22,756 nucleotides of DNA, taken from Chitinivibrionales bacterium. Lineage in GTDB: Bacteria; Fibrobacterota; Chitinivibrionia; Chitinivibrionales; WJKA01. A program made the position numbers and the translations under genes. The stretch is taken from assembly GCA_041641555.1 (NCBI GenBank), contig JBEPYC010000019.1, positions 1 through 22,756 on the forward strand, read 5' to 3'. Shown piece after piece: positions 3,494 to 21,719 of the stretch; position 1 is the first letter of the stretch; every line of letters starts with the position of its first letter. The notes under the pieces were generated by a model. The model was not told the origin of the DNA and did no database searches. It saw only the letters and a program-made list of their open reading frames with translations.

Positions 3494-5365
3494 TCACTCT
3501 TTCTCAGGCGATCTGCCACTCCAGGAGATTATATAGGTGTCTTCTTCACGCTTGGTCTTGACCTCAAATCCTGAATTGTAGAACACCGAGAGCATTCCCT
3601 GATTCTTTGCAAGTACATTGGCCTCGAAACCGGAGACATCGCGTGCCTTTCCTGCCTTGACGAGCAGATCGAGAAGATAGGAGCCAATTTTTCTGGACTG
3701 CCAATCATCACGTACCAGAAAAGAGACCTCGGCTTTGTTATTGGTTTCGTTGAGATAGTACCTTCCAACACCGACAATGTGCTCTCCACCGGTCTCCTGA
3801 GTCACCGCAACAATCGCCATGTCTTTGCTGTAATCGACATTGGTGAACTCCTGGATGAAACGATGGGGAAACGCCTTGATTGGCTTGAAAAACCGGAATG
3901 CGATCGATCGCTCCGAACACATGTAAAGCATGTCTCGAAGCATCTTTTCGTCGGTGGGTTTCATCGGCCGAAAGAGTATTTCGGTACCATCGGGCAACGG
4001 TGCCCGTGTCTCGACATTCTTGGGGTATTTACTCGATTTCGGAGGCAGTACTTTCTGGTCCGCAAAAATATAGTTGCGCTTTTTGGCCTCTTTGAGGATT
4101 TCTCCTCTGAAATCCGGATGGGCGATTTCTGCCAGGGCAATGACCCGCTCCCGAATCGACTTGCCAAAGAGATAGGCGACCCCATATTCGGTGACCACAT
4201 AATGCACATCTCCCCGCGTAGTCACCACGCCGGCACCTTCAGTCAGCGTAGGGACGATCCGTGAAATGGAACCACCCTTGGCGGTCGAAGGAAGCGCGAT
4301 GATCGGCTTGCCTTCACGGGCCCGTGCTGCACCTCGGTTGAAATCGACCTGCCCCCCGATGCCGCTGTAAAAATCATACCCGATCGAATCCGAACACACC
4401 TGGCCGGTCATATCGACTTCTAAAGCAGTATTGATTGCAACCATACGGTTATGCTGACTGATCACAAACGGATCGTTCACGTATTCCGATGGCCGAAATT
4501 CAAACATCTGGTTCTCATGAAGGTATTCGTAGAGACGGTGGGTGCCGTAACAAAAACTGGCGGTAACCTTTCCACGGTTGATCGTTTTCTTCCGCCCGTT
4601 GATTACCCCCTTTTCGATCAAGGGGATGATCGCGTCGTTGAACATCTCTGTGTGAATGCCGATATCGTTTTTGTCGGCCAGATACTTCAGGACGGCTTGC
4701 GGAATGTTCCCGATTCCGACCTCCACAGTCGACCCGTCTTCAACCAATCCCGCTACATTCTGGGCAATTGCTTCGACCGTTTCATCGGGCTCTGGCACCG
4801 TAAACTCGACAATGTCCCGCTTGGTTTCGACGATAGCATCGATCATGTCGACCGGTATCACCGCATCTCCGAGTGTACGGGGCATATTCTCGTTTACCTC
4901 GGCGATGATCATCAGGCTGTTTTCGGCCGCGGATTTGACGATATCCACAGATATGCCCAGACTCAGATATCCGTTTTTGTCCGGGGGACTCGTCTGCACC
5001 AGGGCTACATCCAGCGGCACCTTCCCGGTCTTGAAAAGCTTCGGGATCTCGGAAAGGAAAATGGGGGTATAGTCGCCCCGCCCCTGCACGATTCCTTCGC
5101 GTACATTGGCTGCGAGAAAAAAGCTGAAGGTGCGGAATTTTTTGCTGTGTTCCTCATTAATGTAAGGAGCTATTCCCTGTGTCAGCAGGTGGTAGATCTC
5201 GGCATCGACAATTTCGTTGTTTCCGCTCACCAGTTCATCGACCAGAGTTTGCGGAACTCCACACCCGGTACCGATAAAAATGCGCGGTCCGCCGGGCTTG
5301 ATCGACCGAATGGCCTCAGTCGCCGATTTCACTTTACTTTTATAGAGTTCTTCCCATGAAGCCAT
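3494..5365 (-). CDS. Acetyl-CoA hydrolase/transferase-family (4-hydroxybutyrate/succinyl-CoA:acetate CoA-transferase-like) domain fused to a C-terminal Pat-type GNAT acetyltransferase domain
   Basis: 623 aa with an ATG start. The N-terminal ~430 aa (MASWEELYKSKVKSATEAIRSIKPGGPRIFIGTGCGVPQTLVDEL...) is typical of the AcetylCoA_hydro/transferase family. The C-terminal ~170 aa, encoded at the low-coordinate end (about 3494..4010), has GNAT features: ...RSIAFRFF..., ...MAIVAV..., ...AEVSFLVRDDWQSRKIG..., ...NVLAKNQGM.... These resemble the GNAT domain of protein acetyltransferase Pat. The gene lies 4 bp downstream of the ACD gene on the same strand. Confidence 0.85.
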   Translation of the reverse strand: MASWEELYKSKVKSATEAIRSIKPGGPRIFIGTGCGVPQTLVDELVSGNNEIVDAEIYHLLTQGIAPYINEEHSKKFRTFSFFLAANVREGIVQGRGDYTPIFLSEIPKLFKTGKVPLDVALVQTSPPDKNGYLSLGISVDIVKSAAENSLMIIAEVNENMPRTLGDAVIPVDMIDAIVETKRDIVEFTVPEPDETVEAIAQNVAGLVEDGSTVEVGIGNIPQAVLKYLADKNDIGIHTEMFNDAIIPLIEKGVINGRKKTINRGKVTASFCYGTHRLYEYLHENQMFEFRPSEYVNDPFVISQHNRMVAINTALEVDMTGQVCSDSIGYDFYSGIGGQVDFNRGAARAREGKPIIALPSTAKGGSISRIVPTLTEGAGVVTTRGDVHYVVTEYGVAYLFGKSIRERVIALAEIAHPDFRGEILKEAKKRNYIFADQKVLPPKSSKYPKNVETRAPLPDGTEILFRPMKPTDEKMLRDMLYMCSERSIAFRFFKPIKAFPHRFIQEFTNVDYSKDMAIVAVTQETGGEHIVGVGRYYLNETNNKAEVSFLVRDDWQSRKIGSYLLDLLVKAGKARDVSGFEANVLAKNQGMLSVFYNSGFEVKTKREEDTYIISWSGRSPEKE

Positions 5366-7846: not shown

Positions 7847-9217
7847 CTAGATTGCTCGTCCCCACTTCAATGCATTTTTATGAACGCTAAAATTGATACC
7901 CGATTGCACATATTCGTATCCGCGCGAGCAAAACGGCACCATCGTGAGCCGGCATGAAACCGGTTTGAACCTCTCCATGGCAATCCTGGGCAGCAGGCTT
8001 TTTCTGGCATTTGAGCAGGAAGACAGTACCAGCGGTACACTCTCGAAAGCTTCGGCGGCCGAGAGGGTTACCGGATAGGTTCTCTCACCCGATGACCGGC
8101 TATCCTTTGTGCTGCGAAGCTGAGCGATGGTGAGGGCTCCTGCTATGCGAAGAAAGATTCGGGGCGCAATTTTAAAGGCAGGTATCCAGATGTCGGCAGA
8201 GCGATTCTTCATTGCAGGTGTAACCATGCGCGGCACATTCAATTCCTGGATCAGATCAGCAAAAGAATCGAGCCTCAGCGATTCACCTTTGACCGCTATT
8301 CGCCAGAAAGGTAACCACATGGCATCGCCGGAGTCCCCGCCTTCGGCGAATGAAATCCGGGTCCTGACGAGTCTGCCATATTGCGCGGCCCACCCTACCC
8401 CGCACCGGGAGCAAGGCAACACCATCGACACTGTTGTCCCTTCAAGACTCCATCCGCAATCAGGGCAGAGCGTAGGGACGAACCGAACGCCTTCCTGAGC
8501 AGTGTCTCTGGCTTCACTCCCGAAATCGATCGGATCACAGGAGCCGACTCGTGTTCCGGTCAGCCCGTCGTACAAGACACTTCCCTGGTAGAAATACGGC
8601 CAGTAAACCTGACTCACGATCTCCCCAATGAATGCATTAATAGTATCACCGCGCCCAGCCCCGATGCCGGAATCCCGGGCGATTGCATTGGTGACAATCT
8701 CGGCCACCCGGCGGTCGGAAGCGTTGTCGGAGCGGGCCAGCTGAGCAAATGCCGCTCTTGCGGCTCCGTCGGGGTTCTCCTGAAAATGCTCGATAGAACT
8801 GTGTGCCTTGCTGGTGATGCGGCCAAGAAAGTGTTCCAGACTCAATGTTGGTTTGAGGAAAACACCTTCGGTCTTCTGCTCAACGAACCGGGCTTTCACA
8901 GCCTGAAGACGGTACCCCAGGGAATGGGGGATCCGGAGATCCGTTCTCGCACATATTGTCCGGTCGATCAGTTTGTGCTTGCTCTGAGTAACCCCCTGCC
9001 GAAACTCAATACCCTTGAATCTCCAATAAGGAACATAAAAGGAATACGCCTGGTGTTTCTCTGCGGCGGGAACATACGAAGAGAAGTATTGCGAAGCGGT
9101 GACAATAAGCCGAACCCGACAATACGGGCAGGTGAAGACCCGATCGGACTCGGTCATCTCTACCGGTGCCCCGCATTGGGGGCACCGATGATCGAAACGG
9201 AGGTCAGATCCGTTCAC
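7847..9217 (-). CDS. Double zinc-ribbon protein of unknown function, translationally coupled to the upstream SPFH gene (possible YdjG/YdjH-like partner)
   Basis: The track ORF 7847..9412 overlaps the SPFH gene by 209 bp, which is implausible. An in-frame GTG at 9217 overlaps the upstream stop by about 11 nt, which is typical coupling. The product carries two CxxC...CxxC ribbons (CPQCGAPVEM...FTCPYC and CPDCGWSLEG...LPCSRCG) about 300 aa apart. I recognise no other domain. Confidence 0.55.
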   Translation of the reverse strand: MNGSDLRFDHRCPQCGAPVEMTESDRVFTCPYCRVRLIVTASQYFSSYVPAAEKHQAYSFYVPYWRFKGIEFRQGVTQSKHKLIDRTICARTDLRIPHSLGYRLQAVKARFVEQKTEGVFLKPTLSLEHFLGRITSKAHSSIEHFQENPDGAARAAFAQLARSDNASDRRVAEIVTNAIARDSGIGAGRGDTINAFIGEIVSQVYWPYFYQGSVLYDGLTGTRVGSCDPIDFGSEARDTAQEGVRFVPTLCPDCGWSLEGTTVSMVLPCSRCGVGWAAQYGRLVRTRISFAEGGDSGDAMWLPFWRIAVKGESLRLDSFADLIQELNVPRMVTPAMKNRSADIWIPAFKIAPRIFLRIAGALTIAQLRSTKDSRSSGERTYPVTLSAAEAFESVPLVLSSCSNARKSLLPRIAMERFKPVSCRLTMVPFCSRGYEYVQSGINFSVHKNALKWGRAI

Positions 9218-10334
9218 CGCACTGATTACAGAAAACTGAGTTAGAAAGAATATCGGCCGAGCAGTGTGGACATTTACGCGATGACTCTTTTTGCTCTGCC
9301 GGTGTTCCACAACGCACGCAGAACTTAGCATTGGGAGTAAGGTTTTTAGCGCAGTTGGTACATTTACGGAAGACGAGTATCTGATGACCGCAGTACATGC
9401 AGAAGTGTGCATTCCGCGAAAGCGAATGCCCGCAATCGGGGCAGATCTGCTGATCGGTGGTCGGCGAGGCCTCAGAGGATCTGGCCTGCGGCTGAAAATA
9501 CTGCGAGAGCATTGCCGGCATCATCATCCCAAGTCCCATCCCCATTCCCTGCCCGCTTGCGGCGGGATTATCCGCAGCTTTCTCGACAGCCATCGCCGTC
9601 TTGAGTCTGGTCAGATCCCCCAGATCCTTGAAAAGTCCCAGCTTACTCCGGTCATCGATTGCACGCTGTACTTCCTGCGGCGGTGTTATCGAATTGATAA
9701 ACATGTGGGGCATGGCAAGACCAAACCGGGCCAGGTCTTGTTGCAATCGTTGCTGAAGTCCTTTTGAAAGCTCGGCGTAGGTCCCCGGCAGGTTGAAAAT
9801 CGAGTCCAGGTGCTCTCCAAGATGATCGTTGAGCCTCGAAACCAACAGGTCGCTGAAATACTCGGTAATGTCCATGGTGGATAGCGACGGGACAGTTCCC
9901 ACGATACTGTTTACGAAGAGAAGTGGCTGAACCACCTGCACGGTGAATTGCCCAAACGCACGAATACGGATGAGGCCAAGCTCGGAATCCTTGAATGCAA
10001 CCGGGTGACGGGTTCCCCATTTCCACCCGGTGAAAACCTTCATGTTGACATAGTACACTTCGGCGCGAAGCGGGCTGGTGAATCCCCATGGAATTGCCAT
10101 GATTTTGTTGAGCACCGGAATGTTACCCGTTTTGAGAGTATGACGTCCCGGTCCGAAGACCTGGATCGCTTTCCCATTATAGAAAAAAACCCCCACCTGA
10201 CTTTCCCTGACAACCAGTTGCGCTCCAAACTTGATCTCCCCTGAGCCTTTCTCGGGGATTCGGTGGACCATCTCCTCTCCGGTAGGATCGAACCACTCGA
10301 TCATTTCGAGAAAAACGGCGTTGTTTTTACCCAT
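9204..10334 (-). CDS. SPFH/band-7 (stomatin-prohibitin-flotillin) family protein of the YdjI/COG4260 type with a C-terminal triple zinc ribbon
   Basis: 376 aa. The N-terminus is MIEWFDPTGEEMVHRIPEKGSGEIKFGAQLVVRESQVGVFFYNGKAIQVFGPGRHTL...AEVYYVNMKVF, characteristic of the virion-core-protein-like SPFH family. A Gly/Met-rich linker (GQGMGMGLGMMMP) follows. Three C-terminal CxxC-x10-12-CxxC zinc ribbons are present. AGGA lies 7 nt upstream of the ATG. Confidence 0.85.
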   Translation of the reverse strand: MGKNNAVFLEMIEWFDPTGEEMVHRIPEKGSGEIKFGAQLVVRESQVGVFFYNGKAIQVFGPGRHTLKTGNIPVLNKIMAIPWGFTSPLRAEVYYVNMKVFTGWKWGTRHPVAFKDSELGLIRIRAFGQFTVQVVQPLLFVNSIVGTVPSLSTMDITEYFSDLLVSRLNDHLGEHLDSIFNLPGTYAELSKGLQQRLQQDLARFGLAMPHMFINSITPPQEVQRAIDDRSKLGLFKDLGDLTRLKTAMAVEKAADNPAASGQGMGMGLGMMMPAMLSQYFQPQARSSEASPTTDQQICPDCGHSLSRNAHFCMYCGHQILVFRKCTNCAKNLTPNAKFCVRCGTPAEQKESSRKCPHCSADILSNSVFCNQCGERI

Positions 10335-10435: not shown

Positions 10436-11812
10436 GTGAGAAACATATTATTTATCATGATAGCCCAAACCTTTGCCCGAACTGGAACGGTTGATGTGAA
10501 CTCAGGCCCGAAAAACTCGAATGTCGATCTAAAAAAGCTGCTCAGGGTTTTCCGTCAGAAAGACCGATATCTTCCAATTGCACCCGTCGGCCAGGGCGGG
10601 ATAGCCGATATCGTAAGCGCGTTCGACCGCCGCCTCAATCGGGTGGTCGCCATCAAGGAACTGCGAGCCGACAGCGCCAAAGATGAACGTCTGGTCCGCA
10701 TGTTTCTTACTGAGGCAAAACTCGTTGGGTATTTGGATCATCCGGGAGTCATCCCGGTGTTCGATGCCTTCCTTCGGAAGAGAAACCGTCTCTGCTATAC
10801 GATGAAACTTCTGGAAGGAAAGCCCCTGACAACGCTGATCAAGTCTCAGAGAAGCATTGGTCCGGCCCCCAATGAACAGAATAGTTTCCTGGAAATCTTC
10901 ATTCGCCTCTGCGAAACGATGGCCTACGTGCATGACCGGGGTGTTGTCCACCTGGACCTCAAACCCGACAATATCATGGTCGGTACGTACGGTGAAGTCA
11001 TGATCATGGATTGGGGAAACGCACACCTTTTCGACAAAGAACCCTACCGCAGGCATTTCGGGGCACATGCCTATGACATGCACCTGCTCTCGTCAACGGA
11101 TATCGAAAAAGGGGTTGTGGTTGGTACTCCACTGTACATGTCACCGGAGCAGACAAGAGATACCCTCGACAGTCTTCGTCCGCAATCGGACATTTTCTCT
11201 CTGGGTGTTATTCTGTACGAAATGATGACCGGCACGATGCCTTTTACCGGGGAGACCTTCAAAGAGCTCTCGGACGGTATCCGCACACACTTCCCGTATC
11301 CGCTCCACGAACTCAACCCGGACATTCCACGAAGGCTGTCCACGATTTGCGACAGGATGATGACCAAGGAGCCAGACCGTCGATTCTCATCCTGCCAGGA
11401 AGTGCTCTCCGAAATTGCCGACTACCGAAATTCCGGGCAAGCATTTTCATCGGAGAGTTTTCTTCCCGGTGAAGCGATATTCGAAGAAGGCGATCCCGGC
11501 AACTTTTCATTTGTCATACTTTCGGGGAAAGTCGAAATCACCAAAAAATCCGGTGGGAAAACCACGGTCCTGGCCTGCCTCGGCAAAGGAGAGGTTGTCG
11601 GCGAGCTCGCCATTCTCACCGGCACGCCCCGCTCGGCAACCGCCCGCGCAGTGGTACCTACTCTAATACGCGTCATGGGGAGTGAAGAAATCGAGAAAGA
11701 ACTGGAGAAGCTCTCTCCGTGGGTAGGTCAGATGATAACCGGCCTTTCCCATCGGTTTCTTGCCCAGAACGAGCGTATCATCGAACTTCAACGAAGAGAC
11801 AGAGAACAGTGA
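10436..11812 (+). CDS. Hanks-type Ser/Thr protein kinase fused to a C-terminal cyclic-nucleotide-binding (CNB/cNMP) domain
   Basis: 458 aa. The kinase shows a Gly-rich loop GQGGIADI, VAIKEL with the Lys, a catalytic loop HLDLKPDN (HLD rather than HRD), DWG in place of DFG, and YMSPEQ as the APE-like motif. The C-terminal CNB domain shows FEEGDPGNFSFVILSGKVEI, GELAIL and the phosphate-binding cassette PRSATARA. The start is GTG at 10436, or alternatively the ATG at 10457. Confidence 0.85.
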   Translation: MRNILFIMIAQTFARTGTVDVNSGPKNSNVDLKKLLRVFRQKDRYLPIAPVGQGGIADIVSAFDRRLNRVVAIKELRADSAKDERLVRMFLTEAKLVGYLDHPGVIPVFDAFLRKRNRLCYTMKLLEGKPLTTLIKSQRSIGPAPNEQNSFLEIFIRLCETMAYVHDRGVVHLDLKPDNIMVGTYGEVMIMDWGNAHLFDKEPYRRHFGAHAYDMHLLSSTDIEKGVVVGTPLYMSPEQTRDTLDSLRPQSDIFSLGVILYEMMTGTMPFTGETFKELSDGIRTHFPYPLHELNPDIPRRLSTICDRMMTKEPDRRFSSCQEVLSEIADYRNSGQAFSSESFLPGEAIFEEGDPGNFSFVILSGKVEITKKSGGKTTVLACLGKGEVVGELAILTGTPRSATARAVVPTLIRVMGSEEIEKELEKLSPWVGQMITGLSHRFLAQNERIIELQRRDREQ

Positions 11813-16205: not shown

Positions 16206-16982
16206 ATGCGCACGGCATTTACCGTTTGCCTTTTCCTTCTCCTTTCCATACGTTCCTATTCTGATACTACTGGAGTTTTCGAAGTGGATACTTCTTCCGA
16301 GAACACTGTTATTCAGGATCTCGGACCCCAGAGCACATCTGCCCAGGCCGATACCGCTCAACCGCTGCAGGAAACCATCGGGAATACAGACGGGCAGATC
16401 CGTGAGTTCACAGTTGAATCCCCCCTAAAAGGCCGTCCTACAGGTATCAACGCCCGTCTGTCGGACGCAAGGAGCCGGGTTGTCAGCGGAACGGTTATCA
16501 ACTCGATAGGAGTTGGCCTGTACGCTGTTTCCTTTTCTCTCGGGGTTTCTGCTTATTCCTATCAGTCCTCTAATACCGCGGTTCTGCTCTGGATGGGCTC
16601 TCAGGTCATGACAATTCTCGGACCGATTGTGTCAGGAGTCGGTGGTTCGAACGCATACGATGCAGCGACCCAGGACTATAACATGCGGGTCGCAAGACCA
16701 GTACACTGGAATTACTACCGGGCAGGGTGGGCCTTTGCCGGAGCGAGTACAGCACTCGCGATGGTATCGGTAACAGGTACGGATGGGACCGGGTTTTCGG
16801 CACTCGGAAGCCTTGCCCTGAGCATCACCGGGAAAGTAATGTTCGTTATACATACCGTAAAAGCAACCGCCTACACCAACTCCATTATCGATAAAGTGCA
16901 GGGCTTTTCGCCTACCGTTGGTTTTGCTCCAACACTTTCTCCACAAGGCAACCCTGGGGCGGCAGTGGTACTCAACTTCTGA
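16206..16982 (+). CDS. Hypothetical secreted or polytopic membrane protein with a signal peptide
   Basis: 258 aa. The N-terminal signal peptide MRTAFTVCLFLLLSIRSYS is followed by an acidic, Thr/Ser-rich region and then several Gly/Ala/Ser-rich hydrophobic segments (GVGLYAVSFSLGVSAYSY, MTILGPIVSGVGG, AGWAFAGASTALAMVSV). GGGAG lies 6 nt upstream of the ATG. I recognise no family. Confidence 0.5.
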   Translation: MRTAFTVCLFLLLSIRSYSDTTGVFEVDTSSENTVIQDLGPQSTSAQADTAQPLQETIGNTDGQIREFTVESPLKGRPTGINARLSDARSRVVSGTVINSIGVGLYAVSFSLGVSAYSYQSSNTAVLLWMGSQVMTILGPIVSGVGGSNAYDAATQDYNMRVARPVHWNYYRAGWAFAGASTALAMVSVTGTDGTGFSALGSLALSITGKVMFVIHTVKATAYTNSIIDKVQGFSPTVGFAPTLSPQGNPGAAVVLNF

Positions 16983-17244
16983 CAAACAGGATCTCTTCCT
17001 CGCCGGGGTATTAGCCAGTTCCCCGTATTACCTTCAGTTTAATCCTCGCGCGTTCTTTCGGCTTTACCATTGCCATTGCGTTACCGAATGGTATCCAGGC
17101 AGCCCCACTCGGAATTTCACACCAACCAAACAAGGCTGATGCAGTGGTATCGATCGCTACCCCCTCCCCTTCTAAGGCTCAATCATTTGTCTAAAGTTCA
17201 GAAATCCTTCCTCAAGCAACAACAACACAAACATTCTGCACGTA

Positions 17245-17268
17245 GTATATTCTTCTTATGGAATATAC
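17245..17268. promoter_or_regulatory. Perfect 8-bp inverted repeat (GTATATTC-N8-GAATATAC) centred on the arsR-family start codon; candidate operator
   Basis: Read directly: gtatattc ttcttATG gaatatac. This is a 24-bp dyad-symmetric site of the kind bound by winged-helix dimeric repressors, including ArsR/SmtB proteins. It overlaps the ATG at 17258. Confidence 0.3.
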
Positions 17269-17620
17269 CATCAAAAACATACAGCCGGAAGCCAAAGATC
17301 TTGCGGGGCTCTTTGGTGTGCTGTCGAACCCGCTTCGCCTGCAGATACTCAAGCTGCTTATGGATGCCTGCGCAGAGAACAACAACAGCGGTTTGTGCGT
17401 CCAGGAACTCAATGCCAGTATAGATGTTCCGCAGCCATACCTTTCGAAACATCTCAAGATTCTCGAGTCAAACGGGGTGCTCGTTCATCGACGGGAGGCA
17501 AACAAGATGTACTATGCATTTGCCCAAAACAGCTCTATTTGCAGAATTTTCGATTTTCTCGGCACCTGCTGTGAAAAGTACAGCGAGTTTGCGGCCTGGA
17601 AACGAACATCCAAAACCTGA
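17258..17620 (+). CDS. ArsR/SmtB-family transcriptional regulator (probably a BigR/SqrR-like persulfide-sensing repressor)
   Basis: 120 aa. The winged HTH is LSNPLRLQILKLLMDA...LCVQELNASIDVPQPYLSKHLKILESNGVLVHRREANKMYYAF. Cys residues occur at positions 38 and 47 near alpha2/alpha3 and at 95, 104 and 105 in the C-terminal helix. The gene sits 20 bp upstream of the persulfide-reductase fusion gene. Confidence 0.85.
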   Translation: MEYTIKNIQPEAKDLAGLFGVLSNPLRLQILKLLMDACAENNNSGLCVQELNASIDVPQPYLSKHLKILESNGVLVHRREANKMYYAFAQNSSICRIFDFLGTCCEKYSEFAAWKRTSKT

Positions 17621-17640
17621 ACCAACGGGGAAGAGACGCC

Positions 17641-20091
17641 ATGAAATGCGTAATTGTCGGTGGAGTAGCGGGTGGGGCCAGTGCTGCGGCACGGCTCCGA
17701 CGCCTTGATGAATCAGCGGAAATAGTCCTGTTCGAACGTGGCCCTCACATTTCATTTGCCAATTGTGGTCTTCCATACTACATAGGTGGTGTTATAAGCG
17801 AGAGGGAAAACCTCCTGGTCGTGAAACCGGAACTGATGAAAAACCGGTTCAATATCGATGTGCGGGTTTCATCGGAAGTCGTTTCGATCGACCGAGAAAA
17901 AAAGGAAGTCAACGTACATGACCTCCACAACGACCGTCACTACACAGAGTCCTACGATAAGTTAATTCTTTCTCCTGGTGCCTCACCCATACGTCCGCCT
18001 CTCCCCGGAATCGGATCATCCAAGATCTATACACTCCGCAATATTCCCGATACCGATGCTATCGTGGGTGCGGTGGAAAAAGAATCTGTCCGCAAAGCAG
18101 TTGTCGTTGGTGGGGGGTTTATTGGCCTCGAGATGGCAGAGAACCTTCACCGAAAAGGGATTCAGGTCACATTGGTCGAAATGGCACCGCAGGTCATGGC
18201 GCCGCTTGATTTTGAGATGGCCTCTATTGTTCATCAGCATCTGCACATAAAGAATATTGAATTCTACCTCGGCGACGCCGTTACCGAGTTTGTGGAAACC
18301 GGCGATACCTTGACTACGGTACTGACCAGTGGTAGAAAGATCAATGCAAACATGGTCATCCTGGCAATCGGGGTGAAACCCGAAGTTCATCTGGCCAAAG
18401 AAGCAGGGCTGGAGACCGGACGTGGTATTCGCGTGTCGGCATCGATGCAGACCAGTGATCCGGATATTTTTGCGGTCGGCGATGCGGTTGAAGTTACCGA
18501 TTTTATATCGGGGAAACCGACGGTAATACCGCTTGCCTGGCCCGCCAACAAACAGGGGCGAGTGGCTGCCGACACGATCGGGGGAATAGAGTCCAGCTAC
18601 AAAGGGACTCAGGGAACCGCGATCGCCAAGGTTTTCGACCTCACGGTTGCATCGACGGGGCTTAACGAGAAACAGCTCAAGGACCTGGGCATCGGTTATC
18701 AAAAATCATTTACCCACTCGGCCAACCATGCGGGGTATTATCCCGGCGCGATCCCGATGTCGATCAAGCTGCTTTTTTCTCCCGAGAACGGCAAGCTCTA
18801 TGGCGCACAGATCGTGGGGATCAAAGGTGCCGATAAGAGAATCGATGTGCTGGCCACAGCAATTCGGGCAGGCATGTCGGTGTTTGACCTCGAAGAGCTC
18901 GAACTTGCTTACGCTCCCCCCTATTCTTCGGCCAAGGACCCGGTCATTATGGCGGGATTCGTGGCATCCAACGTGCTGAGGGACCGCGTCAAGGTTGTTC
19001 ACTGGCACGATCTGGATCAGATTACGAAATCAAAGGCCTTTCTTCTCGATGTACGCACCCCCGAGGAATTCAGTTTGGGGCACATCGAAACGGCGGTAAA
19101 TATACCGATCGATGAATTGCGGGGACGAACCGGGGAGATCCCCAAAGGCAAACCGGTGTATGTTTATTGTCAGATCGGGCTCCGTGGCTATGTCGCCTGC
19201 CGCATGCTCGACCAGCTCGGATACGATACGTACAATCTCAGTGGCGGATACAAAACATACCATTTCACTTCTCTGGAACAATCCAACGAAGACGTCTACG
19301 AGAATGACCAGGTAACGCTGAGCGATAATATCATAGCCTCCGGGGGAGAACAGACTGACGGTGAAGCCGACAAAACGATCGATGCCTCCGGGCTTCAGTG
19401 CCCGGGACCGATCATGCAGCTTTACAATGCCATCAAAACCATGCAGCCCCATCAGACGGTTCAGATTTCGGCTACCGATCCGGGGTTTGCCATAGACCTG
19501 AAATCCTGGTGCGAACGAACCGGCAACAAGCTTCTCTCGATGAAAAACGAAGAAGGGGTAACAACTGCCTGGATACGCAAAGCAGCATACGAGAAAGAGG
19601 CATCTGAATCACGAACCAACCTCGATGGTAAGACCATGGTGCTTTTCAGTGGAGATTTCGATCGGGCCATGGCGGCAATGATTATCGCCAACACATCGGC
19701 AAGCATGGGTAAGAAGGTCTCGATATTTTTCACTTTCTGGGGTCTCAATCTCCTTCGGAAAGACTCCCCCGTACGTGTAGATAAAAACGCGATCGAAAAG
19801 ATGTTCTCTTTCATGATGCCGCGAGGTGCAAAAAAATTCACCCTCTCCAAAATGAACATGATGGGTGCGGGGACGGCCATGATGAAAGGAATCATGAAGA
19901 AAAAGCAGGTCACATCCCTGGAAGATCTGATGCAGCAGGCATTGGATAATGGCGTGCGGTTTATCGCTTGCCAGATGACCATGGACCTGATGGGAATAAA
20001 AAAGGAAGAACTGATCGATGGTATCGAATTCGGCGGTGCTGCTACTTATGTCAGCACTACCGATACAGCCACGATGAATCTGTTTATCTAA
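17641..20091 (+). CDS. Four-domain fusion of CoA-disulfide reductase (CoADR/Nox family) with rhodanese, TusA-like and DsrE/DsrF-like domains (CoA-persulfide / persulfide reductase type)
   Basis: 816 aa. The FAD-binding N-terminus is MKCVIVGGVAGGASAAARL, with the redox-active Cys42 in SFANCGLPYY. A second Rossmann motif is VVVGGGFIGLE. The rhodanese domain has the active-site loop VYVYCQIGLRG. The TusA-like domain has the CPGP motif (GLQCPGPIMQ). The C-terminal DsrE/DsrF-like domain reads MVLFSGDFDRAMAAMIIAN...FIACQMTMDLMG. The Shine-Dalgarno sequence is ggggaagag. Confidence 0.9.
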   Translation: MKCVIVGGVAGGASAAARLRRLDESAEIVLFERGPHISFANCGLPYYIGGVISERENLLVVKPELMKNRFNIDVRVSSEVVSIDREKKEVNVHDLHNDRHYTESYDKLILSPGASPIRPPLPGIGSSKIYTLRNIPDTDAIVGAVEKESVRKAVVVGGGFIGLEMAENLHRKGIQVTLVEMAPQVMAPLDFEMASIVHQHLHIKNIEFYLGDAVTEFVETGDTLTTVLTSGRKINANMVILAIGVKPEVHLAKEAGLETGRGIRVSASMQTSDPDIFAVGDAVEVTDFISGKPTVIPLAWPANKQGRVAADTIGGIESSYKGTQGTAIAKVFDLTVASTGLNEKQLKDLGIGYQKSFTHSANHAGYYPGAIPMSIKLLFSPENGKLYGAQIVGIKGADKRIDVLATAIRAGMSVFDLEELELAYAPPYSSAKDPVIMAGFVASNVLRDRVKVVHWHDLDQITKSKAFLLDVRTPEEFSLGHIETAVNIPIDELRGRTGEIPKGKPVYVYCQIGLRGYVACRMLDQLGYDTYNLSGGYKTYHFTSLEQSNEDVYENDQVTLSDNIIASGGEQTDGEADKTIDASGLQCPGPIMQLYNAIKTMQPHQTVQISATDPGFAIDLKSWCERTGNKLLSMKNEEGVTTAWIRKAAYEKEASESRTNLDGKTMVLFSGDFDRAMAAMIIANTSASMGKKVSIFFTFWGLNLLRKDSPVRVDKNAIEKMFSFMMPRGAKKFTLSKMNMMGAGTAMMKGIMKKKQVTSLEDLMQQALDNGVRFIACQMTMDLMGIKKEELIDGIEFGGAATYVSTTDTATMNLFI

Positions 20092-20098
20092 AAGGAGC

Positions 20099-20122
20099 GG
20101 GATCGGAGTTCGCTCCGATCCC
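20099..20122. terminator. Perfect 10-bp hairpin (GGGATCGGAG-ttcg-CTCCGATCCC) between convergent genes; likely terminator, better U-tract on the minus strand
   Basis: The hairpin sits 8 nt after the TAA of the + strand fusion gene. In minus-strand orientation it is followed by gcuccuuuua, consistent with terminating the aldo/keto reductase transcript. On the + strand the tail is cuucuccucc, which is a poor U-tract. Confidence 0.5.
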
Positions 20123-20284: not shown

Positions 20285-21409
20285 TTATTTATTCTTGGAG
20301 AGCGCTTCATGCGCTTCTTTCAACTGCTTACGTATCGGGATATGCTGAGGACATTTTTCTTCGCACTCTCCGCATTCGATACATGCCTCAGCATTCAAAT
20401 GCTCGGTCCATCCGCCGGTACCCAGACTGTTGTACTTTTCTTTTGCGATATCCCACAGACCGTAGACACGGCCCCAGTTGTACTGATTGAAAATCCATGC
20501 AATCGCGACTTTTTGAGGGCAGGGCATGCAATAATTACACCCGGTGCAGTACAGGTCGGCCAATGCACGCAGCCGTTTCGTATGCTCATCAAGTACCCCC
20601 GTTTCCTCGCGGGTAAGGGGTGTATCAAGCGATGCCGTCTCTATGTTTTCTTCTACCTGCTGGAGCGTGCTCATTCCCGAAAGGGCGACTGATACATTTG
20701 GATTACCAAGCACAAACCGCAAAGCCAGCTCCGGAACCCGAGCTATTCCCTCGACCATTTCTTCAAGCACTTCCGAAGTCGCGCCGAGACGTCCGCCTGC
20801 AACCGGCCCCATCACGACGACTCCGAGTCCATTTTCCGAAGCATACGCGATGCCCTCTTCAAGGTCCCGGTTCAGCAAATTGTATTGAAGCGTGATTGAT
20901 TCAGGGTACCCGGTGTCGATAATTTTCTTGAGTGCCTCATTGCTGTCGTGAAACGAGCAGCAGATATGCTTGATCAATCCCTGATCGCGCGCGCTGCGCA
21001 TCCATTTGCCTATTCGCGGCTCAACCGCTTCTGTGTACCGCTTCCAATTGAGTCCGTGATGATTGTAAATATCGATGTACTCCACCCCGAGTCTCTCGAG
21101 GCTGTCTTCAAGGTTTTTCCACCATGTTTTTTCATCATTATCGTAGTAAGGATTCTTCGTGGAAACGATAATCCTGTCACGCCACCCCTGGAGAGCTTCG
21201 CCCACTACACGCTGGCTGTCCTTGTTGCAATACCCCACAGCGGTATCGATATAGTTGACTCCGGCTTCGAACGCCCGATGAATCATGGGGATGGCCTTCT
21301 CCCGATCCACTCGCTGGTTTTCACCATCGCCGATCATGGGAAGACGCATTGCACCAAACCCAAGTGTCGATACCTTCAACCCCGTTTTGCCAAGAACTCT
21401 GTACTGCAT
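20285..21409 (-). CDS. Aldo/keto reductase with a C-terminal 4Fe-4S ferredoxin-type cluster domain (COG1453-type)
   Basis: The AKR N-terminus is MQYRVLGKTGLKVSTLGFGAMRLP, followed by a TIM-barrel body. The C-terminus carries CTGCNYCMPCPQKV and CIECGECEEKCPQHIP Cys motifs. The track ORF extends a further 38 codons to 21523. I prefer the ATG at 21409, which is preceded by the strong Shine-Dalgarno aaggtggag. Confidence 0.85.
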   Translation of the reverse strand: MQYRVLGKTGLKVSTLGFGAMRLPMIGDGENQRVDREKAIPMIHRAFEAGVNYIDTAVGYCNKDSQRVVGEALQGWRDRIIVSTKNPYYDNDEKTWWKNLEDSLERLGVEYIDIYNHHGLNWKRYTEAVEPRIGKWMRSARDQGLIKHICCSFHDSNEALKKIIDTGYPESITLQYNLLNRDLEEGIAYASENGLGVVVMGPVAGGRLGATSEVLEEMVEGIARVPELALRFVLGNPNVSVALSGMSTLQQVEENIETASLDTPLTREETGVLDEHTKRLRALADLYCTGCNYCMPCPQKVAIAWIFNQYNWGRVYGLWDIAKEKYNSLGTGGWTEHLNAEACIECGECEEKCPQHIPIRKQLKEAHEALSKNK

Positions 21410-21719
21410 CGCTCCACCTTTCCGAAAATCAGATGTGTGAGAACTCTTTCGGAGGTACCCGCTTGACTTCCAAGTCATCCGGCCCTGATTGGCGCCAATC
21501 TCTGGCACCACCGACAAATCCAAATGACGATCAAGGGGGGATTCTATTCCAATCTACTTTAATCCGGAAGAACCGGCAACAGAATGGACCGGTACAGCCA
21601 CTGCGGTCTAATCTTGATCACCCATACCCCCTCTTATCCTGCCGAGCGAATTACCACCTATCGATCACCTGCCTTCGTTTTCGGAAATCACTATCAGAAT
21701 CGAGAGAATGGGAAGCTCA

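Follow-up and report, generated by a model that had tools for sequence, protein, structure and literature searches.

The stretch of DNA analysed here (the window) comprises the 22,756 nucleotides (nt) of contig JBEPYC010000019.1 from a Chitinivibrionales bacterium (assembly GCA_041641555.1, positions 1 to 22,756 of the forward strand). It carries a gene for a small ArsR/SmtB-family regulator, followed by a gene for a four-domain protein in which a flavoprotein of the coenzyme A (CoA)-disulfide reductase type is fused to rhodanese, TusA and DsrE-like domains. The first-pass annotation of this DNA, made from the sequence alone, had described both open reading frames (ORFs), the 20-bp gap between them and the cysteines of the regulator, all of which are exact in the sequence. 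The features of the locus, with lengths in amino acids (aa) where they encode protein, are as follows.

17231 to 17236 (+): upstream half-site ACATTC, 10 nt before the box and a direct repeat of its left arm; its ATTC (17233 to 17236) is invariant in four orthologous loci
17245 to 17268 (no strand): candidate operator, a perfect inverted repeat GTATATTC-N8-GAATATAC, with arms at 17245 to 17252 and 17261 to 17268 that are 100% complementary
17247 to 17252 (+): putative -10 element TATATT, 5 nt before the ATG, with no Shine-Dalgarno sequence between
17258 to 17620 (+): ArsR/SmtB-family regulator, a 120-aa ORF with Cys 38, 47, 95, 104 and 105
17369 to 17371, 17396 to 17398, 17540 to 17542 and 17567 to 17572 (+): codons of C38, C47, C95 and C104-C105, respectively
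17621 to 17640 (+): intergenic spacer of 20 nt, ACCAACGGGGAAGAGACGCC, with a purine-rich stretch resembling a ribosome-binding site, GGGGAAGAG, at 17627 to 17635
17641 to 20091 (+): four-domain fusion ORF, 816 aa
20099 to 20122 (no strand): G+C-rich hairpin GGGATCGGAG-TTCG-CTCCGATCCC, 8 nt beyond the stop of the fusion ORF, where two genes converge

The explanation favoured here, held with about even confidence, is that the two genes form an autoregulated, thiol-sensing stress module for sulfane sulfur.

The operon and its likely operator

The regulator and fusion genes overlap by 4 nt in three orthologous loci (L001, L003 and L094), compared with the 20-nt gap in the window, and the product downstream of the regulator in these loci starts MKxxIVGGVAGGAS. 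The overlap supports a single transcript, and with it the direct coupling of an ArsR-family regulator to a CoA-disulfide reductase (CoADR)-rhodanese-TusA-DsrE protein that had been claimed at first pass is borne out. The hairpin at 20099 to 20122 probably marks where the operon ends; its T-tail is confined to the minus strand, so that its role on the plus strand is presumed. Comparison of these sequences makes it highly probable that the pair is a self-contained two-gene operon, autoregulated through a conserved operator.

The 8-nt spacer of the inverted repeat contains the regulator ATG (17258), and the operator core ATATTC-N8-GAATAT (17247 to 17266), the sole perfect copy in the 22.7-kb window, overlaps both the putative -10 element and the start codon. 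Inside the 8-bp repeat, at 17249 to 17264, lies ATTC-N8-GAAT, the sequence that experiments established as the "sqr box" of SqrR; it is also present in the YgaV footprint. One rival explanation is that the repeat is accidental, or is kept only because its right arm encodes Met-Glu-Tyr, with the regulator acting elsewhere. Perfect 8-bp inverted repeats with spacers of 4 to 12 nt are indeed common (10 in the window, compared with 3.1 ± 2.0 in shuffled sequences), and GAATAT of the right arm forms codons 2 and 3 (Glu2-Tyr3), which are invariant in four orthologues. Repeat length was therefore rejected as evidence for an operator, given that such repeats arise by chance, and the significance of the box rests on its conservation in orthologous loci.

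This conservation is marked. In the four orthologous loci of branch A of the regulator clade (described below), whose regulators share 55-68% identity, the upstream DNA is unalignable except for an invariant ATTC, ATATTCT 10 nt later and TGGAATAT 5 nt further, and the left arm, though non-coding, equals the coding right arm in conservation. Furthermore, the same box stands before hgcA-like genes in branch B of the clade, where it is either non-coding (L093, 3540 to 3570) or overlaps the hgcA-like start codon and encodes other residues (L088). An accidental or purely coding origin is most improbable against these observations. The proposal that the repeat is the likely operator, made at first pass, thus holds, on conservation in four orthologous loci with diverged flanks and on the core shared with SqrR and YgaV.

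The box TATTC-N8-GAATA was found in seven of 94 loci, all at promoters of clade operons or of a fusion gene: four belong to branch A (L001, L002, L003 and L094), two to branch B (L088 and L093) and the seventh is L016. Within the clade, each promoter that could be read carries the box. The looser pattern TTC-N8-GAA was absent from all 16 promoters of other ArsR genes located upstream of fusions, so that the box is specific to the clade and not general to ArsR-fusion pairs. Additional copies also occur. L093 and L090 have a further upstream (T)ATTC at 16-bp periodicity, and L090 carries three ATATTC copies 16 bp apart with a degenerate right arm.

In the window, an imperfect second box (ACATTC-N8-GTATAT, 17231 to 17250, two mismatches) overlaps the main box by 4-6 bp, which suggests two adjacent or overlapping sites for regulator dimers. 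In L016 (positions 297 to 314; Bacillota metagenome-assembled genome (MAG) JAEWSD010000269), a perfect CCTATTC-N8-GAATAGG lies about 35 nt 5' of a fusion gene with no adjoining regulator gene, and this fusion may be controlled by a box-binding regulator encoded elsewhere.

The placement of promoter elements in two relatives provides the basis for a model of initiation. The arrangement is TTGACA-17 nt-TATATT-6 nt-GTG in L003 and TTGACA-18 nt-AATATT-7 nt-ATG in L088. These spacings suggest that the regulator mRNA may be leaderless or nearly so, with the -10 element, the start site and the initiation codon all lying under the bound repressor.

Domains and distribution of the fusion enzyme

The first-pass annotation had assigned four domains to the fusion protein, and a Pfam scan recovered Pyr_redox_2, Rhodanese, TusA and DrsE_2. 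The modules are arranged as follows.

aa 1 to 296: Pyr_redox_2 (Pfam PF07992, 6e-62)
aa 328 to 431: Pyr_redox_dim (Pfam, 7e-15)
17641 to 18975 (+): CoA-disulfide-reductase-type flavoprotein module, aa 1 to 445, with Rossmann motifs for FAD and NAD(P)H and one redox cysteine only, Cys42 (codon 17764 to 17766)
19021 to 19260 (+): Rhodanese (PF00581), aa 461 to 540, 2.8e-16, with the loop C510-Q-I-G-L-R-G (C510 codon 19168 to 19170)
19372 to 19581 (+): TusA, aa 578 to 647, 1.8e-19, with C587-P-G-P (C587 codon 19399 to 19401)
19630 to 20085 (+): DsrE-like domain (PF13686 DrsE_2), aa 664 to 815, 1.7e-59 (C777 codon 19969 to 19971)

The motifs SFANC42GLPY, C510QIGLRG and C587PGP had been read correctly, and a fourth carrier cysteine lies in the DsrE-like domain (AC777QMTM). 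All four cysteines (C42, C510, C587 and C777) are invariant across 22 homologues of 57-72% identity. Within the same set the flanks of C42 in SFANC42GLPY, residues C510, Q511, G513, L514, R515 and G516 of the rhodanese loop, Q586 to P590 (Q-C-P-G-P) of TusA, and A776, C777 and M779 of the DsrE-like domain are also unchanged. SFANC42GLPY agrees with the motif SFxNCxLPY, which holds the single redox cysteine in the class I pyridine-nucleotide-disulfide oxidoreductases CoADR-RHD, Npsr and CoAPR.

The N-terminal part of the protein is closest to persulfide and polysulfide reductases. Over the first ~545 aa, the Protein Data Bank (PDB) matches are B. anthracis CoADR-RHD (3ICR, E = 4.8e-195), Shewanella Npsr (3e-184) and E. 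faecalis CoAPR (4e-163), and the alignments to 3ICR, 3NTA and 8A56 extend to residues 541 to 547. Kinship with CoADR-rhodanese persulfide/polysulfide reductases, as originally proposed, is thus well supported (E = 5e-195 to 4e-163 over the N-terminal 545 aa). Plain CoA-disulfide reductases are far more distant (~1e-82), and the CoADR equivalog cut-offs are narrowly missed (TIGR03385, 515.3 vs 578.8; NF007123, 389.5 vs 458; NF010037, 372.9 vs 394). At the other end, the C-terminal 150 residues match the DsrE-like structure PDB 3PNX (1.1e-30), and the NCBIfam DsrE2 model scores 105 bits, under its cut-off of 210. From its domains and motifs, the fusion enzyme probably acts on sulfane sulfur.

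The four-domain architecture had been regarded at first pass as rarer than the two- or three-domain versions, which proved incorrect: it is widespread and has been published previously. The best 120 database matches (57-72% identity, full length) all share the domain set and, where named, are called "CoA-disulfide reductase" or "FAD-dependent oxidoreductase". Scanning a single genome for each species yielded at least 600 candidate stretches, of which the best 80 loci were examined; nearly all of these are full-length, and the fusion occurs in at least 80 species of about 14 phyla and in more than 120 protein clusters. The phyla include Bacillota, Bacteroidota (Bacteroides, Prevotella, Phocaeicola, Porphyromonas and Dysgonomonas), Spirochaetota, Planctomycetota, Chloroflexota, Omnitrophota, Cloacimonadota, Verrucomicrobiota, Patescibacteria, Margulisiibacteriota, Pseudomonadota, Desulfobacterota and others. 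Homologues from Bacteroides, Phocaeicola and Prevotella are ~50-52% identical over the full length. One of the known relatives, BF638R_0572 of B. fragilis, carries these four domains, identically ordered and at almost matching coordinates, is upregulated 50-fold in a mutant of the adjacent MarR-type gene bmoR, and its knockout is diamide-sensitive (Teixeira et al., 2018). A "DsrE-Npsr-TusA fusion" with this domain set and order was also described as a "new fusion gene" of lake metagenomes (Vigneron et al., 2021). Hence the enzyme half of the module is a known and widespread architecture.

The B. fragilis results bear on a second rival explanation, in which the regulator is a general thiol-oxidation switch answering to H2O2, disulfides or electrophiles, and the fusion is mainly a reductase of CoA disulfide and low-molecular-weight thiols in an anaerobe. 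The induction of BF638R_0572 in the bmoR mutant, the raised diamide sensitivity on its loss and the public name "CoA-disulfide reductase" are all in keeping with such a role. However, three sulfur-carrier domains with invariant cysteines would be superfluous for plain CoA-disulfide reduction, and the nearest solved relatives are persulfide/polysulfide reductases and not plain CoADR (E ~1e-195 vs 1e-82). A general oxidation switch is considered unlikely.

The regulators that accompany the fusion are diverse. Among 77 genomes, 14 have an ArsR-type gene 5' of the fusion, about nine a MarR-type gene and three a Crp-type gene, and the ArsR-type partners show at least three distinct layouts of conserved cysteines. 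This variety fits thiol-based sensing in general and does not indicate a specific oxidant.

Two of these layouts lie outside the clade of the window regulator. The Firmicutes-type partners (L014, L030, L039, L043, L050, L055, L064 and L070; at ~3500 to 4600 of each locus) mostly carry R-(L/I)-C in alpha2 (R-L-C in L014 and L043), the BigR position being three residues further on, together with C-N-V-x5-C across alpha3, and the alpha5 cysteine is absent; such partners resemble another, separate candidate thiol sensor for the enzyme. ArsR partners from Omnitrophota, Planctomycetota and unclassified MAGs (L026, L041, L045, L047, L057 and L060) have a third layout. In L026, L041, L045 and L060 it comprises an alpha5 pair, C-I/L-x(3-4)-C, whose last cysteine aligns with YgaV C98; L047 and L057 keep the first alpha5 cysteine only, and L026 and L045 add a cysteine in the wing. 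A 70%-identical fusion without an upstream ArsR gene was also observed in a Spirochaetales MAG (L004/L006, 3504 to 4634), where it is preceded by a 376-aa membrane polyferredoxin of the Fer4_5 type.

The regulator and its clade

The regulator belongs to the ArsR family, with matches to PF01022 HTH_5 (33.1 bits, cut-off 22) and NF033788 HTH_metalloreg (63.3 bits, cut-off 55). An AlphaFold2 monomer model (predicted local distance difference test score 88.8) shows alpha1 to alpha5 (residues 10-22, 25-40, 48-54, 59-71 and 93-118) and a wing formed by strands 75-80 and 83-88, and the recognition helix reads Q59-P-Y-L-S63-K64-H-L. Foldseek returned 49 matches at E ≤ 1e-3, and the 50 best-ranked entries listed are all ArsR-family structures, with template-modelling scores of 0.55-0.63.

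The cysteines were located on this model. C38 lies at the C-terminal end of alpha2, C47 at the N-terminus of alpha3, and C95, C104 and C105 are all within alpha5. C38 lies six residues past the canonical alpha2 cysteine position, in a clade-specific insertion of seven residues that lengthens alpha2. Comparison was made with BigR and HlyU, taken from a PDB search, and with E. coli YgaV from MG1655; C105 aligns with YgaV C98 (SqrR C107), both being 19 residues after the wing tyrosine. The BigR equivalog NF040642 is the best specific NCBIfam model, all the same scoring 41.8 bits vs a cut-off of 155.

A word-based homologue search with the regulator found one relative only, and its clade was defined by exhaustive hidden Markov model (HMM) and profile searches. 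The HMM search of 1.84 billion representatives found 14 proteins at E ≤ 1e-10, and the profile search of 5.8 billion clusters found 14 members at 117-151 bits, the next score being 73 bits. A metagenome scan with the generic pattern [PS]QPx[VLI]SKHL[KR] gave no clade member among the 80 loci listed (≤63 bits vs >117 for members). The clade is tiny and Cys-rich, comprising about 20 proteins with conserved cysteines at 38, at 46 and/or 47 and at the vicinal pair 104-105. Most relatives read C46-C47 and one reads C46-R47; some have up to eight cysteines and vicinal CC pairs, and C95 is confined to the four members nearest the window regulator.

Two branches can be distinguished. Branch A contains the window regulator, P0122 (L001/L002, 68-70% identity), P0274 (L094, 55-58%) and P0272 (L003, a Chitinivibrionales MAG, 56%), and in every locus, four besides the window, the four-domain fusion lies directly 3' of the regulator. 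Branch B contains P0123, P0129, P0276 and P0277 (L088, L090/L091 and L093), and its regulator gene is the last of a three-gene operon, hgcA-like/hgcB-like/arsR:

L088, 3679 to 5311
L090/L091, 3725 to 5423
L093, 3606 to 5244

The first product (330-340 aa) has HgcA as its best NCBIfam model (160-168 bits vs a cut-off of 275), and its cap helix, NVWCSAGKG in L093 and NVWCSSGKG in L088 and L090, is followed by transmembrane helices; NVWCSAGK is among the accepted high-stringency hgcA motifs. The second product (94-96 aa) has HgcB as its best model (75-87 bits vs 99), with C(L/M)ECGAC and a Cys-rich tail. The clade is not mentioned in the hgcAB and ArsR literature examined. Tentatively, it may be a previously unrecognised four-cysteine (Cys4) ArsR clade that uses a sqr-box-like operator and, depending on lineage, controls either the sulfane-sulfur reductase fusion or hgcA/hgcB-like genes.

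Given the four conserved cysteines and the hgcAB-like sister branch, a thiophilic metal, an Fe-S cluster and thiol oxidation all stay candidate signals. In the first of these explanations the regulator senses a thiophilic metal or metalloid (As(III)/Sb(III), Hg(II), Cd(II), Cu(I) or Zn(II)) at a four-Cys thiolate site, and the enzyme is induced in metal or thiol stress. The conservation of Cys 38, 46/47 and vicinal 104-105, with up to eight cysteines in relatives, speaks for such a site, as do the sister branch in hgcAB-like operons, the generic NCBIfam match to a "metalloregulator" and the presence of AntR and AfArsR/CgArsR among the Foldseek matches. Atypical As(III) sensors draw all their ligands from alpha5, and a check against the AfArsR-type tri-Cys site found C95, C104 and C105 in alpha5 at a spacing of 9-10 residues, with C95 missing from the hgcAB branch. 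A four-Cys ArsR-like regulator of hgcAB, ArsR2 of P. mercurii ND132, lies upstream of hgcAB and is arsenic-responsive; its cysteines (C47/49/86/88), however, are at positions unlike those of the clade. The alpha3 CXC motif is also absent from the window regulator (C47-V-Q). Moreover, metal-sensing ArsR genes usually adjoin transporters, whereas no transporter, ars or mer gene occurs in the window or the four orthologous loci. A metal signal is thus given a small share of the probability.

The cysteines of alpha3 bear also on the thiol-oxidation switch. RexT, an ArsR-family H2O2 sensor of sequence-similarity cluster 6, whose genes adjoin NADH oxidoreductases, uses vicinal cysteines at the N-terminus of alpha3, which is the C46/C47 site of the clade. 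However, the window regulator has a single cysteine there (L46-C47), so that the RexT-type vicinal pair is absent.

Alternatively, the four conserved cysteines could hold an Fe-S cluster, making the regulator a sensor of redox state, O2 or NO. A Cys4 pattern with one part in the alpha2-alpha3 insertion and the other in the C-terminal CC pair would suit this function, the sister branch shares its transcripts with genes for a corrinoid protein and a 2x[4Fe-4S] ferredoxin, and the hosts are apparently all anaerobes. Conversely, the regulator has no similarity to known Fe-S-binding regulator families, no Fe-S-binding ArsR protein was found in the literature examined, and the AlphaFold2 model is confident without cofactor except at residues ~101-120. 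This makes an Fe-S sensor very unlikely.

Proposed mechanism, genomic setting and comparison with known systems

In the proposed mechanism of the sulfane-sulfur module, the reduced repressor would sit on the box and block initiation of the leaderless transcript, and modification of its cysteine cluster (C38, C47, C104 and C105, plus the branch-specific C95) would free it from the DNA. The modifier would most likely be sulfane sulfur, as an organic or inorganic persulfide or polysulfide, giving di- or polysulfide links that include C105. In the enzyme, electrons would pass from NAD(P)H through FAD to Cys42, which, as Cys-S-S-CoA or with a bound-CoA "swinging arm", would reduce the persulfide on rhodanese C510 to H2S. 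TusA C587 and the DsrE-like C777 may gather sulfane sulfur from other donors and hand it to C510, so that a CstA-type relay and a CoAPR-type reductase would be united in one polypeptide. Action of Cys42 and a bound-CoA arm on a rhodanese persulfide has been put forward as the mechanism of CoADR-RHD and CoAPR, and the arm is also a feature of Npsr. Of these, CoAPR reduces CoA persulfide, is induced by sulfide under the control of CstR and is persulfidated in vivo on the rhodanese cysteine only.

Reactive sulfur is favoured as the signal on account of the target gene, the alpha5 cysteine position and the sqr-type box. Persulfide-sensing ArsR proteins are reported to have sulfur-handling genes as their neighbourhood signature, and the sole gene co-transcribed with the window regulator is a sulfur-relay reductase, which matches that signature. 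Reading the signal from the gene neighbourhood and residues in this way, a reactive sulfur species is a plausible effector, with a chance judged slightly short of even.

Several observations weigh against this explanation. The alpha2 sensing cysteines of YgaV (C31), HlyU (C30) and BigR (C42) align with Lys32 of the window regulator in three independent alignments. The cysteine of this mid-alpha2 site is C41 in SqrR, and HlyU has C30/38 there. At position i+5 of the recognition helix, the regulator has a clade-invariant Lys64 (S63-K64-H65-L66) in place of the SqrR glutamine (S-Q-(Q/H)-L); SqrR Gln66 makes most of the base contacts and the residue is cluster-specific (2026 preprint). The sister branch closes hgcA-like/hgcB-like operons, not sulfur operons, and four conserved cysteines with vicinal pairs are more reminiscent of a site for a metal or a cluster than of a persulfide switch of the dithiol type. 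The B. fragilis fusion orthologue is under a MarR-type oxidative-stress regulator, which, with the diamide sensitivity of the mutant, points to general thiol/disulfide homeostasis, and no enzymology of the four-domain form was found in the literature. In addition, a sigma-70 consensus scan of the window recognised no -35 element and called no promoter at the regulator.

The regulator was thus rejected as a member of cluster 4 of the ArsR sequence-similarity network (SqrR/BigR/HlyU/YgaV), and is placed outside the canonical persulfide-sensor cluster, because of Lys32 at the alpha2 site, Lys64 in place of glutamine and the BigR score of 41.8 vs 155. The SqrR/BigR-like cysteine pair expected at first pass is only half retained: the alpha5 position is kept as C105, and the alpha2 cysteine is replaced by Lys32. 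It is possible that the regulator works like a persulfide sensor even though it is not a member of that cluster.

The other ORFs of the window are unrelated housekeeping genes, encoding an alcohol dehydrogenase, an acetyl-CoA hydrolase/GNAT protein, an ADP-forming acyl-CoA synthetase, PPK2, a kinase, an RlmL-like methyltransferase, an aldo-keto reductase and a fasciclin protein. Given these unrelated functions, the regulator-fusion pair is taken to be a stand-alone module. A 258-aa ORF at 16206 to 16982 (+), with a hydrophobic N-terminus and no Pfam match, ends 275 nt from the regulator. A gene of 258-262 aa occupies the equivalent place 5' of the regulator in L001/L002, and it is absent in L003 and L094; this absence and the 275-nt separation led to its rejection as part of the module. 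The aldo-keto reductase (20285 to 21523, -) has a C-terminal 2x[4Fe-4S] ferredoxin-like domain and is convergent with the fusion gene, with the hairpin between them. Elsewhere, the ORF at 10436 to 11812 (+) encodes a Ser/Thr protein kinase domain with a cyclic-nucleotide-binding domain fused at its C-terminal end. A 521-aa ORF without a Pfam match (7847 to 9412, -) and the gene of an SPFH/Band-7 protein with double zinc ribbons (9204 to 10334, -) overlap by ~200 nt at the 3' end of the latter; the start site of one or the other was probably mis-set by the mechanical ORF call.

The significance of the locus lies mainly in its regulator. ArsR proteins beyond the canonical two-Cys persulfide-sensor cluster also appear to use an operator of the sqr-box type, and a different cysteine topology (alpha2 end, alpha3 start and alpha5 CC) has been recruited beside a persulfide-handling enzyme. 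Furthermore, the same clade closes hgcAB-like operons, so that in vitro work on one small regulator would inform both reactive-sulfur sensing and mercury methylation. If the clade has one common signal, whether persulfide/polysulfide or a thiophilic metal, sulfur stress and the expression of some hgcAB genes would be linked, which would give an experimental handle on the long-open question of the regulation and purpose of hgcAB. The clade and its box thus make a compact starting point for experiments on how hgcAB-like genes are regulated.

Compared with known systems, the window regulator resembles SqrR, BigR, HlyU and YgaV in its ArsR fold, the cysteine at the alpha5 sensing position, the ATTC-N8-GAAT core over the promoter and its predicted autoregulation alongside a sulfurtransferase or persulfide-handling gene. 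It differs from them in Lys32, in the seven-residue, Cys-bearing alpha2-alpha3 insertion, in lysine at i+5 and in having four or five conserved cysteines where they have two. Its half-site is also longer, reading (T)ATATTC, and recurs in additional direct-repeat copies.

The fusion shares with CoADR-RHD, Npsr and CoAPR a flavoprotein with a single Cys42 in SFANCGLPY and a C-terminal rhodanese with an active cysteine; unlike them, it adds TusA and DsrE-like domains (~270 aa). As with CoAPR, a sulfur reductase is placed under a repressor, but the repressor of CoAPR is the persulfide-sensing CstR (CsoR-type) and that of the fusion is ArsR-type. The regulator adjacent to BF638R_0572 in B. fragilis differs again, being MarR-type (BmoR). 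CstA of S. aureus is a rhodanese-TusA-DsrE sulfurtransferase. By architecture alone, aa ~460-816 of the fusion resemble it, with the same domain order and one conserved cysteine per domain; unlike in CstA, the relay is covalently joined to the reductase.

Lastly, the clade can be set beside ND132 ArsR2. Both are of the ArsR family with a four-Cys site, putative in the clade, and close relatives of the window regulator share operons with hgcA-like and hgcB-like genes. However, the clade members lie downstream of hgcB and have a different cysteine topology, whereas ArsR2 is encoded upstream of hgcAB.

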